A DNA stretch of 13,060 nucleotides, from positions 1 through 13,060 of the forward strand of contig JAYEMF010000084.1 of NCBI GenBank assembly GCA_034717975.1. Direction: 5' to 3'. This document shows positions 6,001 through 13,060 of the stretch, one piece after another. Origin of the DNA: Campylobacterota bacterium (GTDB lineage: Bacteria > Campylobacterota > Campylobacteria > Campylobacterales > Sulfurimonadaceae). The stretch's first letter is position 1, and every line of letters starts with the position of its first letter. Made by a program: the position numbers.

Positions 6001-9000
6001 GTCATGTGAAGAGGTAAAATGATTGTGGACGATGACACACTCTATGCCTGCATTGAATGCTGAGCGCAGTCCGCGCTGCGAGTCTTCCACTACGATCGCT
6101 TCGTGTTTTTCACCCCCGAAAAGTTCCAGCCCTTTGAGATAAGGGTCGGGATGGGGCTTGGAACGTTCGTATTCGCCGCTGCACAGAACAAACTCCATAT
6201 GCTCGGTAAGGCCGCGTGAGGCATGAATAAGCTCAAAGTCCTCACGGCGCGAAGAGGTGACGATACCCATCCTGCAGGTTTTCCCAAGCTCAGAAAGTAT
6301 GGCAGAGACCCCTTTGATCTCAATATCTTCAGTACGAATATAGTGCTGATAGAGCTCATTACGCCTGTCACGATGCTTTTCGACCGTCTCGCTGTCAAAC
6401 CCCTGCTCTTCAGCCAGTAAAAAAGCACTTTGACCATTGATCATAATCTCGCGGTAGCGCGCTTCGTCAAGGTCGATGCCCATTGTCTTAAGAATTTCAA
6501 CATTGGCGTTGAAGTACCACTTCTCAGTCTCTACAAGTACGCCGTCATTATCAAAGAGAATATATTTTTTCATGGTCTAATTATACTGNNNNNNNNNNNN
6601 NNNNNNNNNNNNNNNNNNNNNNNNNNNNNNNNNNNNNNNNNNNNNNNNNNNNNNNNNNNNNNNNNNNNNNNNNNNNNNNNNNNNNNNNAAAAGATGTATA
6701 ATAAATATAGCTATACGAAGGATCTATTATGACCAAAGAAGAAGTTTTACTAAAAGCCAAAAAACAGCTTGATCTGTTTAAAGCTGAAATCGGTGAGTTG
6801 CGGGGAAAAGCATCACTTCTGGGTGAAGAGGCCAAAAAAGAGTTTGAGAGTGGTGCAAATGAGCTCGAAGAGCTCTATAAAGAGACCGGCACAAAATATG
6901 ATGAACTGCAGAAAAAAAGTTCTGAGAGCTGGAATGAAGCCAAAGATTTCGTTGAATTGACCAACAAGGCGCTGCGTCACTCCTTCAACTACTTTATATC
7001 TCATTACCGTAAAAAAGGGTGATAGTGAGTATATCGGACTGTGCCTTATCTTTAGAGGCGTCCTTTACCTACTCCTGTTCCTCGTATTTACGTAGAACTC
7101 TATACGCCGCATGTTTAAAACGTTCGGTATCCAGTCCGTAAGCCGCGACCATCTTTGTCGCTTCCTCGATACTCGCTTCGGTCATACCTGTTTTAACATT
7201 GATACATTGGCGTATAACACGAAGGGCTTCCACCGGCATGCGATACTGTTGCGGGACCTCTTCTTTACTATCTAGGTAGCGCATTGTTTCAATAAACACT
7301 TCATCAAAGTTCCAATGCTCAAAGAGCATTACATTCACCTCTGCCGTCGTCACACCTGCATAGAGCCGTTCAACCTCTTCAATCGAATCACATGTTTTCA
7401 GCTCTTCCTGGAAGTAGTTCATATAATCACTTTGCATAAGTTCTTCAGCAACGACGACCCTGCCTGTTTCCATAAGGAATGCTATTGGTATCAACGAGCT
7501 TGCAAGCTCTACATCGACTCCCATATACCACTGAAACATCAATGAACTCTGCATATTACACAGGTCACTGAATTGTGCATTCGAAATATTATAGGGGCTC
7601 ATATCGATATCGAAACTTCTGTTAACGGAAGAGTTAAAGGCAAAACCACGTATGGTGTTTATGCCAAAAAGCGTAATCGCCTGCGCAACAGAGACTATAT
7701 TGTTTCGCAGAGCGTACAGAGGTGCATTTACCTTCGCCAGGATATCTGCAGTGAGGATAGGATCGACTTCAATTACCGCCACCAACGCTTTTGTATCCGG
7801 CGCGCCCTCTGCAAAGAGCAGCTGTAGCTTCTGGATCGATTCCGGAAGCGGCGGCAAAGAGTGCACTTTTTCAATGATAGATTCAAATCCCATACCGGCT
7901 CCTGACTCTTTTTCTTTATACTATAATTAGAGCAGCTCTAAAAAACCTTATATATCATCCGGCCCGCCCTTCCATACCAACGGAATAGCTATCTCAAAAC
8001 AAGCACCCTCACTGCTGTTTTCTACGCTGATCGTGCCATGCAGATGCTTCTCGACAATGGTCTTGGACATATAGAGCCCCAGACCCGTACCGTTCTTTTC
8101 ATCTTTGGTGGTGAAGTACGGGTCAAAGATTTTCGCTATGATCGCGTTGTCGATACCGCCGCCGTTGTCACAGATAGTCATAATGACGTTTTCTGCATTA
8201 TCTCCGATAACAACATCGATCTTGCGATCTTCAGCGCGGTGCTCCATCAGAGCCTCTTTGGCATTTTTAAGCAGGTTGATACAGACCTGAAGAAGCTCCC
8301 GGGAATAGGTCTTGACCTTGTAACCGTTTCTATGCTTGACGGAGAACGCGATTAGGTTGTTTTCCAGACTTTTGCCAATGATCTTTTCGGCTTCGGCCAT
8401 CACCTCTTCAACTGTGACCTCCTCTATCGTTTTTTCAGGACGGAAGAAGTTTCTAAAGTCATCAATCGTCTTCGAGAGGTACCTGGTCTGTCTGAGGATG
8501 CTCTGCGCCTGCTCCTGGAGAGCCTCTTCGCTCACCATTTTGAGTTCAATATCGGCGAGCATATTGTTCGCCCCCATGGAAATAACGGTGATAGGCTGAC
8601 GCCACTGATGCGCGATCATGCTGATCATCTCACCCATCACAGCGTGGCGCGACTGGGCGATCATGATCTCTTCTTGTTGATCGGCTTCGGCTTCAAGCTC
8701 TTTGATATGGGTCAAATCTATAGCCGCTATAATCTTCAGCTCCTCTTTGCCGACTGCTATATTTCTACATCTTACCAATGCAGATATCCCGTTACCCTCT
8801 TTATTAAAAAGGAGGGTCTCATACGGTACTTTCCGATCACACTCCATCTCTGGGTTCTCAACACATTTTAATGCTTTGCCAATCTGCTCAAGGCTCTCTT
8901 TGCCAATCATTTCATCTTTATCGCTAAAACCAAACATCTCCAGGGCTGCACTGTTTACATTGATACAGACATTGCCTCTATAGACCAAAATTGCCTCTAA

Positions 9001-12000: not shown

Positions 12001-13060
12001 ACAGTCATGCCCGTACTTCTCTCTAAGCTTAAGCTGCCCCTCATAAACATTTTCAGCTTTTGAAAAATACTCTTTTATCGACATCTTCAGCTCTTTGGCT
12101 CCATGCAGACTCAAAAGCAGAAAATAGGGAACCCTGTCTGGTTCATTCTGTCCGATAGCCGTTAATACTCTTTGCAGTGAGGTCATGACTGATCCTTTAA
12201 CGCTTCAATAACATCTATAACTTTGGATGCATTTGTTGCCATTGCATCCGCACCTATCTCTTTGTAAAGGTCCTTATCAAATCTAAAAGGTGCGCCGCCG
12301 ACTACAACCTTAACACTCATCCCCTCCTGCTGTATTCTGGCTATCAACTCTTTAAGATGCAGAGCAGAGTTAAGCATCAAAACCGAGACCAGCAAGATTT
12401 CAATCTTATCCTCTTTTAAATGAGTGATCAGATTGTCTATGCTGTTTTCCTGTCCATAATCAACAAGATCGTATCCGCTTGCCCTTAAAAAGGTATAGAC
12501 AATCCTTTTCCCCAAGGTATGATAATCGTTAAAAACCACCAATCCCAGGTTTGGATCATCTACTCTTTTGCTTTTGGTCTTTGGAAGCATCTCATCTACG
12601 ATCTCTTCGCAGATCCTGCCCCCCATATAGATTTGAGAGAGTGCGATTTCACCGTTTTCCCATTTCAGGCCCATACTCTCCATCGTAGGAACAACGATCT
12701 GCTCCAATGTATCGATAAAATCACCTGAAGTGGTATTTTCAACCAGGATATCTTTAACTTTTATTCTATTTAAAGATAAAAGGGCATTTTCAAAGTCATT
12801 GATAATCTCTTGCATGACAGGAACTCCTTATACACTTCTATAATTGAGGATACTCTTATTTTCTCTGGTTTGTCAAGAAGTCGTCAAGTGATTCCAGAGA
12901 GATTTAGTACTGATCTCTCTCATACATCACCCCTCCAACTCTGCCAATTTCCCCTCATACATCTCAAGAAGCTCATCCAGCTCATTCTGCACAACTTCCA
13001 GACGCTCAAACTTCACTTCGACATCACTCTCCTCTTGAGAGACAAGCTTAGAGAGTTCCA

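Follow-up and report, generated by a model that had tools for sequence, protein, structure and literature searches.

A recurrent cassette of corrinoid protein, URO-D-family enzyme and DUF1638-GAF histidine kinase: a probable B12-based cell sensor

Introduction

What is read by a histidine kinase that begins with a DUF1638 domain and is encoded directly behind a corrinoid protein and a methyltransferase-like enzyme? The question is raised by a stretch of 13,060 nucleotides (the window) of contig JAYEMF010000084.1 (assembly GCA_034717975.1), from a member of the Sulfurimonadaceae (Campylobacterota) whose genome is 99.9% complete. The three genes had been described in a first-pass annotation as a widespread, undescribed three-gene signalling system. 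In line with the claim of novelty, no DUF1638-fused sensor was found described in the literature searched, and nothing on signalling was found among the publications mentioning DUF1638. For the domain itself, the sections of PMC5764234 that deal with it report, from genetics in Phaeobacter inhibens, that the split B12 methionine synthase requires a DUF1638 protein and that this protein co-occurs with the RamA-like protein, and in the section of PMC12478193 on Ruegeria pomeroyi the DUF1638 protein SPO2162 was raised together with RamA on methylated compounds.

Results

Organization of the locus

The window contains a run of five ORFs on the minus strand, all recovered with the boundaries of the first-pass annotation, and a repeat domain search returned the same domain calls for each. 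In order of transcription, these encode an MtaC-like corrinoid protein of 210 aa (12183..12815), a URO-D/MtaA-fold protein of 340 aa (11164..12186), a cytoplasmic histidine kinase of 569 aa arranged as DUF1638, helix, GAF, HisKA (H355) and HATPase_c (9434..11143), a REC-PAS-HisKA-HATPase_c hybrid kinase of 499 aa (7948..9447) and, as the final gene, an HDOD protein of 274 aa (7069..7893), the last two assigned by domain search. The corrinoid-gene stop and the URO-D start overlap as ATGA, the sensor-kinase gene is preceded by a 20-nt gap holding AAGGAG 7 nt upstream of its ATG, and the sensor-kinase and hybrid-kinase genes overlap by 14 nt. A sigma-70-like promoter match (TTGACA-18-TATCCT; 12847..12876, minus strand) lies 32 nt upstream of the corrinoid gene; it is a consensus match only, such sites being no more numerous in the region than in shuffles. 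No MttB or MtaB was found in the source genome, and no RACo_C_ter (PF14574) gene in the window, the single copy in this genome being located elsewhere (contig C149).

Recurrence of the three-gene cassette

The module peptide pattern GAY[LI][IL]TPGW, the single pattern on which the earlier collection also rests, gave 64 loci, which cover 18 named phyla. The corrinoid and URO-D genes were found directly upstream of the sensor gene, on the same strand and in the same order, in 55 of these loci, as previously claimed for the earlier set. In the other nine, the URO-D gene was cut by a contig edge (2), nothing lay upstream because of a contig edge (1), or only the corrinoid gene (4, one of them after a complete cassette), only the URO-D gene (1) or neither (1) was present. 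This association is far beyond chance. The neighbourhoods of the 64 loci yielded no fourth recurring gene, the next gene cluster (5 loci) being an artefact of antisense ORFs over URO-D; neither the hybrid kinase and HDOD genes nor RACo_C_ter were conserved among them.

A repeat search with the N-terminal module of the kinase gave the same 129 proteins as before, 120 of them listed. Among these 120 matches, outputs were assigned as kinase (81), GGDEF (32), SpoIIE (1), HD (1) or no recognised output (5), and PF07796 was present in 116. What holds of the earlier description as a three-gene signalling system is a conserved, self-contained unit with varied outputs; the term widespread is appropriate for its breadth in phyla and not for its abundance, as the family is sparse. 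An exhaustive phmmer search gave 1376 cluster representatives among 1.84 billion, and within the source phylum any DUF1638 was detected in only one of 301 sampled genomes, namely the source genome. Judging by the titles of their sequence records, most carriers are anaerobes from sediments, groundwater and digesters. No RACo gene was detected in 5 of 14 cassette-carrying genomes, one of them a closed chromosome, and the cassette is therefore not dependent on that activase.

The corrinoid protein

Both the cap (PF02607, 34.3 bits) and the B12-binding Rossmann domain (PF02310, 67.7 bits) are present in the corrinoid protein. The DxHxxG motif noted earlier, the His-on cobalt ligand motif, is found as DYHTLG at residues 97-102 (12510..12527, minus strand); in an alignment of 50 sequences, D97, H99, L101 and G102 are among 18 invariant columns. 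Median identity across loci was 43.5%. The best-scoring family was that of methyltransferase-cognate corrinoid proteins (TIGR02370, MtaC/MtbC/MtgC), at 96.3 bits and under the curated cut-off of 215.3. Of the CarH-type signature (GxxW, EH, GxxH), which is not matched as a whole, GxxW is kept as GLKW (G49, W52), and I62-Y63, 10 and 11 residues past W52, occupy the EH position.

A separate clade of URO-D proteins

The URO-D protein is a member of PF01208 (209.3 bits, residues 3-333) and is similar to MtaA from Desulfitobacterium hafniense (PDB 4ay7, E 3e-18), with scores under the curated cut-offs of TIGR01463 (MtaA/CmuA; 127.4 bits, cut-off 235.4), PRK06252 (129.6 bits, cut-off 244) and the MtaA equivalog (106.3, cut-off 400). 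Identity as the housekeeping HemE was rejected (TIGR01464, 69 bits vs. a cut-off of 302.95); a separate HemE-like URO-D gene (391.8 bits) is present on contig C55 of the source genome.

The zinc ligands of MtaA, which we take to be His-x-Cys ... Cys, had been said to have lost their cysteines in this protein, and the alignment to 4ay7 agrees: LHI-CGN is aligned to THFASGN, and PGCGIAP to ENHGEIP (consensus D-N-H-G-E-I-P; 11239..11259, minus strand), which stands in place of the MtaA G-C-G zinc-ligand loop. Residues H312, G313 and E314 were found in all 49 cassette URO-D proteins and in none of the 23 other URO-D proteins compared, among which the classic H[IV]CGN...C was found; S233 was present in 48 of the 49. 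In the cassette clade, H230...D/E310-x-H312-G-E314 replaces Zn(His,Cys,Cys), and since it is the thiol-activating site that is replaced, the co-substrate of the enzyme should not be a CoM-like thiol.

The cassette proteins formed one clade (49/49, SH-like 99) apart from other URO-D proteins, as judged with FastTree, the only tree method used in this analysis. They share 48-79% identity between phyla and 38 invariant columns, and constitute the best-conserved part of the cassette (median identity 59.5%; corrinoid protein, 43.5%; DUF1638-GAF module, 26-44%). In three of five carrier genomes checked, one of them a single 4.78-Mb chromosome, the cassette URO-D was the sole PF01208 match. The corrinoid and URO-D pair is dedicated to the cassette.

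The DUF1638-GAF histidine kinase

The kinase matches DUF1638 (PF07796) over residues 52-172 (40.5 bits, gathering cut-off 27; 42.2 bits in a whole-genome profile search). In the predicted structure (pLDDT 94.8, pTM 0.88), the domain comprises residues 1-170 (10634..11143, minus strand), folded as two alpha/beta lobes, with TPGW (102-105) and LLLDT (136-140) conserved. Structure searches gave no clear solved relative for this fold (best VIA Z 6.3), the Foldseek matches to two-lobed metal-binding receptors being weak (E about 1e-3, TM about 0.3).

Four conserved cysteines (C9, C35, C61 and C80; 10904..11119, minus strand) mark a putative metal or Fe-S site. Each lies directly past a beta-strand of lobe 1 in the model, a topology from which they may be expected to cluster into one four-ligand site. 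C9 is kept in 108 of 110 sensors and in all 47 free-standing DUF1638 proteins, and C80 in 109/110 and 46/47, respectively; C35 is kept in 108 of 110 sensors, while 46 of the 47 free-standing proteins have a His at the next column instead. The third Cys follows a G-G/Y-G turn in both groups. Of the free-standing ligand set (Cys, His, Cys, Cys, as derived from the 47 proteins), the kinase keeps C9, C61 and C80 and has C35 in place of the His position. These alignments suggest a four-ligand site of Cys4 type in sensors and Cys3His type in free-standing proteins, with a putative metal.

The GAF assignment of the first-pass annotation was borne out by an AF2 model of residues 1-335 (pLDDT 93.4), in which residues about 190-335 (10139..10576, minus strand; family-specific motifs MLFAP, GF, FPEY and YLNLA) adopt a GAF fold (Foldseek prob 1.0). 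Residues about 180-335 matched 3mf0 (VIA Z 15.9, rmsd 2.2, 138 aligned), 3jab (15.5) and 3p01 (15.1). No Pfam GAF sequence model was matched by the kinase at E <= 0.01; some relatives carry PF01590/PF13185, partly through additional GAF domains. HisKA (19.7 bits, under the cut-off of 26.9) and HATPase_c (78.8 bits) follow at 9455..10108 on the minus strand, with the H-box AHQWRQPL and His355 at 10079-10081.

DUF1638 outside the sensors

Among 40 free-standing DUF1638 loci, hand-picked from one phylum's table, a corrinoid-protein gene was found within 6 kb in 19, a RACo/RamA gene in 14 and any corrinoid-methyltransferase gene in 23; the remaining 17 had no corrinoid-related gene within that distance, and their neighbours were unrelated. 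One free-standing locus adjoins cobS. Many operons for glycine-betaine, methoxy-aromatic and methylamine demethylases also contain DUF1638. Three genomes encode a fusion of the domain with a Hydantoinase_A-type ASKHA ATPase, flanked in two of them by URO-D and corrinoid genes.

A split form was detected at six loci, where corrinoid, URO-D and free DUF1638 genes are followed, in all six cases, by a gene for a GAF-led hybrid kinase, whose N-terminus matches the GAF part of the module (hhalign prob 92.5%, E 4.9e-7). Coupling of DUF1638 to GAF is supported by this pairing. The split-signalling proteins were not resolved as nearest kin of the fused ones in the DUF1638 tree (FastTree). As independent contexts agree (methyltransferase operons, ASKHA fusion and split cassette), the link between DUF1638 and corrinoids is strengthened, and elsewhere the domain belongs to corrinoid (re)activation machinery.

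Discussion

The cassette probably represents a novel type of cellular sensor based on B12. From the gene content, order, conservation, folds, motif patterns and contexts observed here, we put at about one in two the probability that the corrinoid protein, the URO-D enzyme and the DUF1638-GAF kinase act as one cytoplasmic sensor in which DUF1638 reports the state of the corrinoid cobalt. B12 would be carried by the small His-on corrinoid protein, on which the dedicated MtaA/UroD-fold enzyme would act, methyl transfer to or from cobalt being the chemistry of its family. Docking of DUF1638 on the corrinoid protein would depend on the state of the cobalt. The domain would most likely distinguish Co(II), the oxidised and inactive state, from Co(I)/methyl-Co(III), might exchange an electron via its metal centre, and would relay what it reads to the GAF domain. 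The latter would gate autophosphorylation of His355, with the REC domain of the next-gene hybrid kinase as the probable phosphoryl acceptor. The stimulus of such a sensor would be redox, oxidants or "corrinoid health". Against this reading stand the 17 of 40 free DUF1638 loci without corrinoid genes, the 5 of 14 carriers in which RACo was not found, and the DUF1638 tree, in which split-signalling and fused proteins do not come out as nearest kin with resolution. Furthermore, GAF could have its own ligand and the four cysteines could form a purely structural zinc site, both of which would count against a corrinoid-based reading.

In a more specific version, possible but doubtful, a protein-bound corrinoid would serve as a non-photochemical signalling cofactor: the URO-D enzyme would cycle it from Co(I) to methyl-Co(III) and back, trapping as Co(II) would follow from oxidants or a rising redox potential, and DUF1638, a Cys4 metal module taken over from B12-enzyme reactivation, would recognise Co(II) and switch kinases, c-di-GMP cyclases or phosphatases.

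The message might instead be a methyl donor. Here the URO-D enzyme would methylate the corrinoid from a specific, widespread donor (e.g., methanol, or a methoxy or methyl-amine/sulfide compound), DUF1638-GAF would tell methyl-Co(III) from Co(I) and the output would report the donor; in the boldest form, the methyl would be passed to a Cys of the Cys4 site, resembling the Ada protein, where a methyl group is taken up on a cysteine. Substrate-corrinoid methyl transfer is indeed the family chemistry (NCBIfam MtaA/CmuA, 127 bits; PDB 4ay7), the very high URO-D conservation fits one fixed small-molecule substrate, the changed His/Asp/His/Glu site fits a non-thiol one, and a single URO-D enzyme with no second methyltransferase in the cassette suits a read-out over a pathway. 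We nevertheless regard this scheme as unlikely: no substrate is identifiable, a corrinoid without acceptor or activase would be methylated once and for good (a concern for the carriers with no RACo found), and the free DUF1638 contexts, near activases and in the ATPase fusion, favour activation over methyl reading. The kinase could also sense alone, through DUF1638-metal redox or a GAF ligand, and control the corrinoid and URO-D genes as co-transcribed enzymes. Small-molecule binding is common among GAF domains and the GAF motifs of the module are strongly conserved, the Cys4 site could itself be a redox sensor, and the free-standing genes lacking corrinoid neighbours are compatible with this view; yet GGDEF, SpoIIE and HD outputs do not control neighbour transcription, no conserved response regulator with a DNA-binding domain occurs in the loci, three genomes hold no further URO-D-family gene with which the pair could work, and MttB and MtaB were not found in the source genome. 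Together with an order and coupling kept over 18 phyla and a URO-D clade exclusive to the cassette, this makes autonomous sensing decidedly improbable.

Thiolate-cobalt chemistry is used by B12 chaperones, and the Cys-rich site would suit a device in which DUF1638 handles the cofactor and the sensor reports apo vs. holo corrinoid protein. The receptor-like Foldseek matches, the locus beside cobS and the methionine-rescued phenotype in P. inhibens, as given in the relevant part of PMC5764234, also fit such a loading role, but the fold matches do not rise above noise, Price et al. argued in that same part against a role in B12 synthesis, and no URO-D partner would be needed; we regard B12-availability sensing or cofactor loading as very improbable. 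Least credible of all is light sensing of the CarH/photocobilin kind by photolysis of the Co-C bond, even if B12-binding domains are known as photoreceptor modules and occur linked to GGDEF and GAF, among other outputs (PMC11796333, in its treatment of these modules). GxxW is kept, yet I62-Y63 stand where the light-responsive signature has E-H, the corrinoid protein scores best with methyltransferase-cognate proteins, the recorded habitats are mostly those of anaerobes, and the URO-D partner has no place in the mechanism.

Among known systems, MtaC/MtaA pairs share with the cassette a cap-and-Rossmann B12 protein with DxHxxG, paired with a URO-D TIM-barrel gene. The cassette differs in that its proteins score below the curated family cut-offs, its URO-D clade is separate and has H...S and D-x-H-G-E (D or E at 310) where MtaA has HxC...C, it lacks a substrate-specific MT1 and pathway genes, and the pair precedes a signalling protein. 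H-NOX is a small haem protein encoded beside the histidine kinase or diguanylate cyclase that it controls. By analogy, the cassette also places a cofactor-protein gene next to a kinase or cyclase without a known ligand site of its own, with corrinoid instead of haem, an obligatory enzyme-like partner in addition, and DUF1638-GAF as the likely receiver.

Free DUF1638 proteins acting with RamA/RACo (P. inhibens, PMC5764234; R. pomeroyi SPO2162, PMC12478193) have the same Pfam domain and a cap plus B12-binding partner; in the sections of these papers devoted to them they are enzyme accessories of roughly 200-300 aa beside an ATP-dependent activase, with no mechanism assigned. They share three of the four ligand positions with the sensors and have His instead of Cys at the second; in the cassette, DUF1638 continues into GAF and an output, and no activase is present. 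CarH and photocobilins, as presented in part of PMC11796333, also use a B12-binding domain in signalling, linked to GGDEF and GAF among others, but carry it in the same polypeptide with the GxxW/EH/GxxH signature, whereas the B12 protein of the cassette is separate, lacks EH and is paired with a methyltransferase-like enzyme. The GAF sensor kinases MsmS and RdmS of Methanosarcina acetivorans are genetically tied to corrinoid methyltransferase genes, and sense via haem and thiols, respectively (PMC6944256), and MecA of the mec cassette, encoded beside corrinoid-protein and MtaA-like genes, senses via a PocR domain (PMC9768040). In the sections of these papers that describe them, all three regulate catabolic operons and none has DUF1638.

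The analysis adds to the first-pass annotation the cassette URO-D clade with its H-G-E motif, the putative Cys4/Cys3His site, and the free, ASKHA-fused and split contexts of DUF1638. An undescribed corrinoid-dependent reaction is suggested by the URO-D clade, which is confined to the cassette and has a non-thiol active site. The cassette also provides a testable handle on DUF1638, a domain required, according to genetics, for B12-dependent methionine synthase in marine Roseobacters, and the candidate ligand site, the ASKHA fusion and the fused and split kinase forms are direct openings for experiment. If the sensor reading is true, a new input type for two-component and c-di-GMP signalling, with a B12 protein plus an enzyme as receptor, would be carried by anaerobes and microaerophiles from 18 phyla or more. 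If the corrinoid in addition acts as the signalling cofactor, this would represent a new sensory principle, and DUF1638 would partner RamA-type activases in recognising the corrinoid state or in electron transfer.

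Gene run in the window

Five closely packed open reading frames were found on the minus strand of the window, and the gene run, the domains and the DxHxxG motif proposed in the first-pass annotation were all recovered from ORF coordinates, domain search and motif position. They encode a corrinoid protein of 210 aa with B12-binding_2 and B12-binding domains (12815-12183), a URO-D protein of 340 aa (12186-11164), a 569-aa kinase with DUF1638, HisKA and HATPase_c (11143-9434), a 499-aa REC-PAS-HisKA-HATPase_c kinase (9447-7948) and an HDOD protein of 274 aa (7893-7069). The DxHxxG motif of the corrinoid protein reads DYHTLG and occupies residues 97-102. 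The corrinoid and URO-D genes overlap via ATGA, a gap of 20 nt containing AAGGAG separates the URO-D gene from the DUF1638 kinase gene, and the latter overlaps the REC-PAS kinase gene by 14 nt. A promoter-like site lies immediately 5' of the corrinoid gene, the frequency of such sites not being above that in shuffles.

The G+C content was 0.37 across positions 9000-10500 (kinase C-terminus and REC region), compared with 0.43-0.47 in the flanking genes. Elsewhere in the window, the plus strand carries at 1861-4788 a PAS_7 protein (267 aa) followed directly by a 706-aa protein, the N-terminal third of which matches WD40/beta-propeller models; these genes are not related to the cassette. DNA near-identical to the window occurs in four DNA runs from one study, labelled brine metagenome, two of them possibly being source runs, and no RNA run was listed among the sequencing runs with near-identical DNA.

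Distribution and conservation of the cassette

The first-pass search with the N-terminal DUF1638-GAF module of the window kinase was repeated and again returned 129 proteins, of which the 120 listed had a kinase (81), GGDEF (32), SpoIIE (1), HD (1) or unrecognised (5) output. An exhaustive phmmer search of 1.84 billion cluster representatives with the 335-aa module resulted in 1376 matches with E <= 1e-3, of which 1086 remained at a threshold of 1e-10 and 617 at 1e-30, and the module was N-terminal in all of the 150 matches listed.

Loci were then collected from one-genome-per-species contigs with the peptide pattern GAY[LI][IL]TPGW, derived from a nine-sequence alignment, and upstream genes were scored by tblastn with the corrinoid and URO-D proteins of the window. 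This yielded 64 loci from 18 named phyla, with the same sampling bias as the first-pass set, both being single-pattern collections. Record names of carriers include Geomonas sp. Red32, Geomesophilobacter sediminis, Dethiosulfatarculus sandiegensis and Desulfatitalea alkaliphila among these loci, and Methylomonas sp. LL1, Heliorestis convoluta and Sulfurimicrobium lacus among the matches of the module search. The conserved upstream pair reported earlier was borne out: corrinoid and URO-D genes stood immediately upstream, in the same order and on the same strand, in 55 of the 64 loci. The remainder comprised two loci with URO-D truncated by the contig edge, one with a contig edge and nothing upstream, four with the corrinoid gene alone, one with URO-D alone and one with neither gene. 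When neighbouring ORFs were clustered all-against-all, the three cassette families were the only recurring ones (at 63, 54 and 50 loci); the five-locus cluster that came next consisted of an antisense ORF overlying URO-D. Neither the REC-PAS kinase gene nor the HDOD gene was conserved in the neighbourhoods of the other loci, and the HDOD gene was absent even from the nearest one, L001. URO-D was the most conserved part of the cassette (48-79% identity, median 59.5%). The corrinoid protein came next with 36-59% (median 43.5%), and identities of the module ranged over 26-44%. The earlier description of the cassette as widespread stands as regards its 18 named phyla, but its distribution is patchy, DUF1638 having been found in only one of 301 sampled genomes of the window's own phylum, namely that of the window itself.

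In an Anaerolineales MAG (L040:1214-7770), two sensor cassettes stand in tandem, the first complete (corrinoid protein, URO-D, sensor) and the second with corrinoid protein and sensor but without URO-D; this second sensor is among the four loci with the corrinoid gene alone. At L094:3419-5986, corrinoid and URO-D genes precede a DUF1638-GAF-PAS-PAS-HD_5 (HD-GYP-like) protein, which scored 103 bits against the Pfam DUF1638 model (40 bits for the window protein) and may represent a transitional form between free-standing and sensor-type DUF1638.

Structure of the input module and its split form

Residues 1-335 were modelled with AF2 from 110 sequences (pLDDT 93.4, pTM 0.69). Residues ~190-335 are predicted to adopt a GAF fold, as proposed earlier, with a VIA Z of 15.9 to the GAF domain of PDE5A (3mf0; rmsd 2.2, 138 aligned), Z of 10-15 to many other GAF domains, and a Foldseek probability of 1.0. 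Modelled alone (residues 1-180; pLDDT 94.8, pTM 0.88), DUF1638 formed two alpha/beta lobes with no convincing relative among solved structures: the best VIA match was 3lub (Z 6.3, rmsd 3.6, 140 aligned), 16 chains reached Z >= 5 and no chain reached Z >= 8, and the best Foldseek match had E 5e-4 at TM 0.28. Such values are at noise level, and a new fold is not claimed. A search of the ESM Atlas with DUF1638 returned nothing but DUF1638 clusters.

Near-invariant positions in the 110 module sequences included C9, C35, C80, TPGW (102-105) and LLDT (137-140), as well as the GAF motifs FAP, GF, FPEY and YLNLA. In the model, C9, C35, C61 (which stands after a G-G turn) and C80 each lie right after a strand of lobe 1, and strand ends are the usual position of cofactor sites in sheets of this kind; the four cysteines would thus be expected to cluster into one site. 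Among free-standing DUF1638 proteins, C9 (47/47), C80 (46/47) and the Cys after Y-G were also kept, and an L-H pair (His in 46/47) occupied the site of C35, which is present in 108 of 110 sensors. Because His and Cys switch between subfamilies at this four-ligand site, the pattern suggests binding of a metal or an Fe-S cluster. Two module proteins without recognised output domain (P0031 and P0035) share a cysteine-rich C-terminal tail (ICxxCKKIRD...W...HGxCPxC), which might serve as a small zinc-binding output or as a motif for interaction.

A split form of the cassette was found at six loci (L087, L088, L127, L132, L133 and L136), where corrinoid protein, URO-D and free-standing DUF1638 follow in this order, the first two fused in one protein at L087 and L133. 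In all six, the next gene encodes a hybrid kinase with an N-terminal region of ~200 aa without domain match, followed by PAS-HisKA-HATPase_c-REC. These kinases showed no significant BLASTP match to the module; only profile comparison, with a profile built from the six N-termini, gave a match to the GAF portion of the fused module (hhalign probability 92.5%, E 4.9e-7). Given the gene order and this GAF match, the fused module and the pair of DUF1638 and GAF-kinase are two forms of one arrangement, and the existence of both speaks for an action of DUF1638 on the GAF domain. In the DUF1638 tree, fused forms made up one group (SH-like 99), and split forms were not resolved as their sisters.

The URO-D partner and a second cassette in the genome

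The absence of the MtaA Cys zinc ligands, noted in the first reading, was confirmed at the level of alignments. The zinc-ligand stretches 'LHI-CGN' and 'PGCGIAP' of the MtaA homologue 4ay7 align with 'THFASGN' and 'ENHGEIP' in the window protein. When 49 cassette proteins were compared with 23 others (from free-standing DUF1638 loci and the second pair of the genome), H312, G313 and E314 were present in 49/49 and 0/23, respectively; further marks of the cassette proteins were Q148, Y154, N89 and P87 (each 49/49), D310 and S233 (48/49) and H230 (46/49), and the classic H[IV]CGN...C pattern occurred in some of the 23. The 49 proteins fell on one side of a branch with SH-like support of 99 (FastTree), indicating a separate clade, with URO-D proteins directly adjoining free-standing DUF1638 as nearest outgroups. 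For MtaA/CmuA, MtbA and HemE alike, the window protein scored below the curated NCBIfam cut-off. Since the ligand stretches are altered and the scores lie below cut-off, the window protein is MtaA-like in fold but lacks the zinc-thiol feature of the family. A housekeeping HemE function was ruled out by the sub-cut-off score together with a separate HemE-like gene (391.8 bits) in the window's genome, in which neither MttB nor MtaB was found.

This genome (2.52 Mb, 99.9% complete) contains one DUF1638, one RACo (a corrinoid activase) and three URO-D genes, the third within a second cassette on the minus strand of contig C149 (L090:5598-10983). There, a corrinoid protein (210 aa), a URO-D protein (336 aa; 27% identical to that of the window, C-terminal Cys retained), RACo (535 aa) and a 710-aa kinase, P0123, follow in order, without DUF1638. 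P0123 has a weak GAF match, a PAS domain and the same H-box (AHQWRQPL) as the window kinase, and it did not match the module significantly by BLASTP. Both MtaA-like pairs of the organism thus stand upstream of kinases, no known MT1 (substrate-specific methyltransferase) family was found in its genome, and the C149 cassette may be another way to wire a corrinoid pair to a kinase. Adjoining it, at L090:13551-15301, are genes resembling sirohaem synthase and the sirohaem decarboxylase NirDL/AhbAB, i.e. further tetrapyrrole-pathway genes beside a corrinoid cassette.

In three other carriers (G611, G004 and G608) the genome has no PF01208 match besides the cassette URO-D, and G004 has no cap-domain match other than the cassette corrinoid protein. 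RACo was present in 9 of 14 cassette-carrying genomes and was not found in the other five, including G611, a single 4.78-Mb chromosome.

DUF1638 outside the cassette

The three-part B12 methionine synthase of Phaeobacter inhibens requires a DUF1638 protein and a RamA-like protein, which co-occur across Alphaproteobacteria, with no mechanism given by the authors (PMC5764234). A DUF1638 protein was up together with RamA in Ruegeria pomeroyi on methylated substrates (PMC12478193).

Among five cassette-carrying genomes, four of them named isolates, five of six free-standing DUF1638 loci lay inside corrinoid methyltransferase operons. In the phylum of Dethiosulfatarculus, a PF07796 survey of 301 sampled genomes gave 110 matches in 78 of them, almost always in open frames of 190-330 aa; sensor-type DUF1638 is under-counted here because the Pfam model scores such domains weakly. 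Forty further loci were hand-picked, non-randomly, from this table for free-standing length and a distance of more than ~3 kb from the contig start. Within 6 kb, local HMMs detected genes for a corrinoid protein (19), URO-D (18), RACo/RamA (14), a pterin-binding methyltransferase (9) and MttB (1), with at least one of these at 23 of 40 loci; the other 17 had unrelated neighbours (16 scanned; L104 stops at the contig edge). In three genomes, DUF1638 was fused N-terminally to Hydant_A_N and Hydantoinase_A, an ASKHA ATPase, in proteins of ~955-978 aa (L091:3740-6676, L092:1617-4484 and L093:3671-6526), flanked by a URO-D gene and a corrinoid-protein gene at L091 and L092. RACo is likewise an ASKHA ATPase according to its Pfam description, and the fusion is a candidate one-piece corrinoid activase.

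Proposed mechanism and alternatives

A three-protein sensor with DUF1638 as reader is the interpretation favoured here, at a probability of about one half. DUF1638 would dock on the corrinoid protein depending on its cobalt state, presumably as in activation systems, and, once docked, would drive the GAF domain and then the output. The favoured read-out would be oxidised Co(II) versus Co(I)/methyl-Co(III), which would make the cassette a sensor of redox state, oxidants or corrinoid health.

A methyl donor as the signal sensed by the cassette is considered unlikely. Rather more doubtful is a self-sufficient kinase, with corrinoid protein and URO-D merely co-transcribed enzymes. A signal of B12 availability or loading seems improbable, and light sensing highly so: the 'EH' signature of CarH is missing in the corrinoid protein, and a CarH-like photoreceptor was dropped on these grounds.

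In outline, the proposed three-protein sensor is comparable to partner-protein sensors, for instance those of H-NOX operons, and the cassette is rated among sensor proteins having an accessory cofactor protein. It differs from MsmS/RdmS, described as haem or thiol kinases (PMC6944256), and from the mec cassette kinase, kinship with which was dropped, the input of that kinase being PocR (PMC9768040). A literature search, with most subscription journals outside its scope, found no description of DUF1638-fused sensors or of the cassette, which to that extent can still be called undescribed. Its parts are already known, namely an MtaC-like corrinoid protein, the URO-D fold, GAF and kinase/GGDEF outputs; there is a real chance that together they embody a new sensory use of corrinoids.
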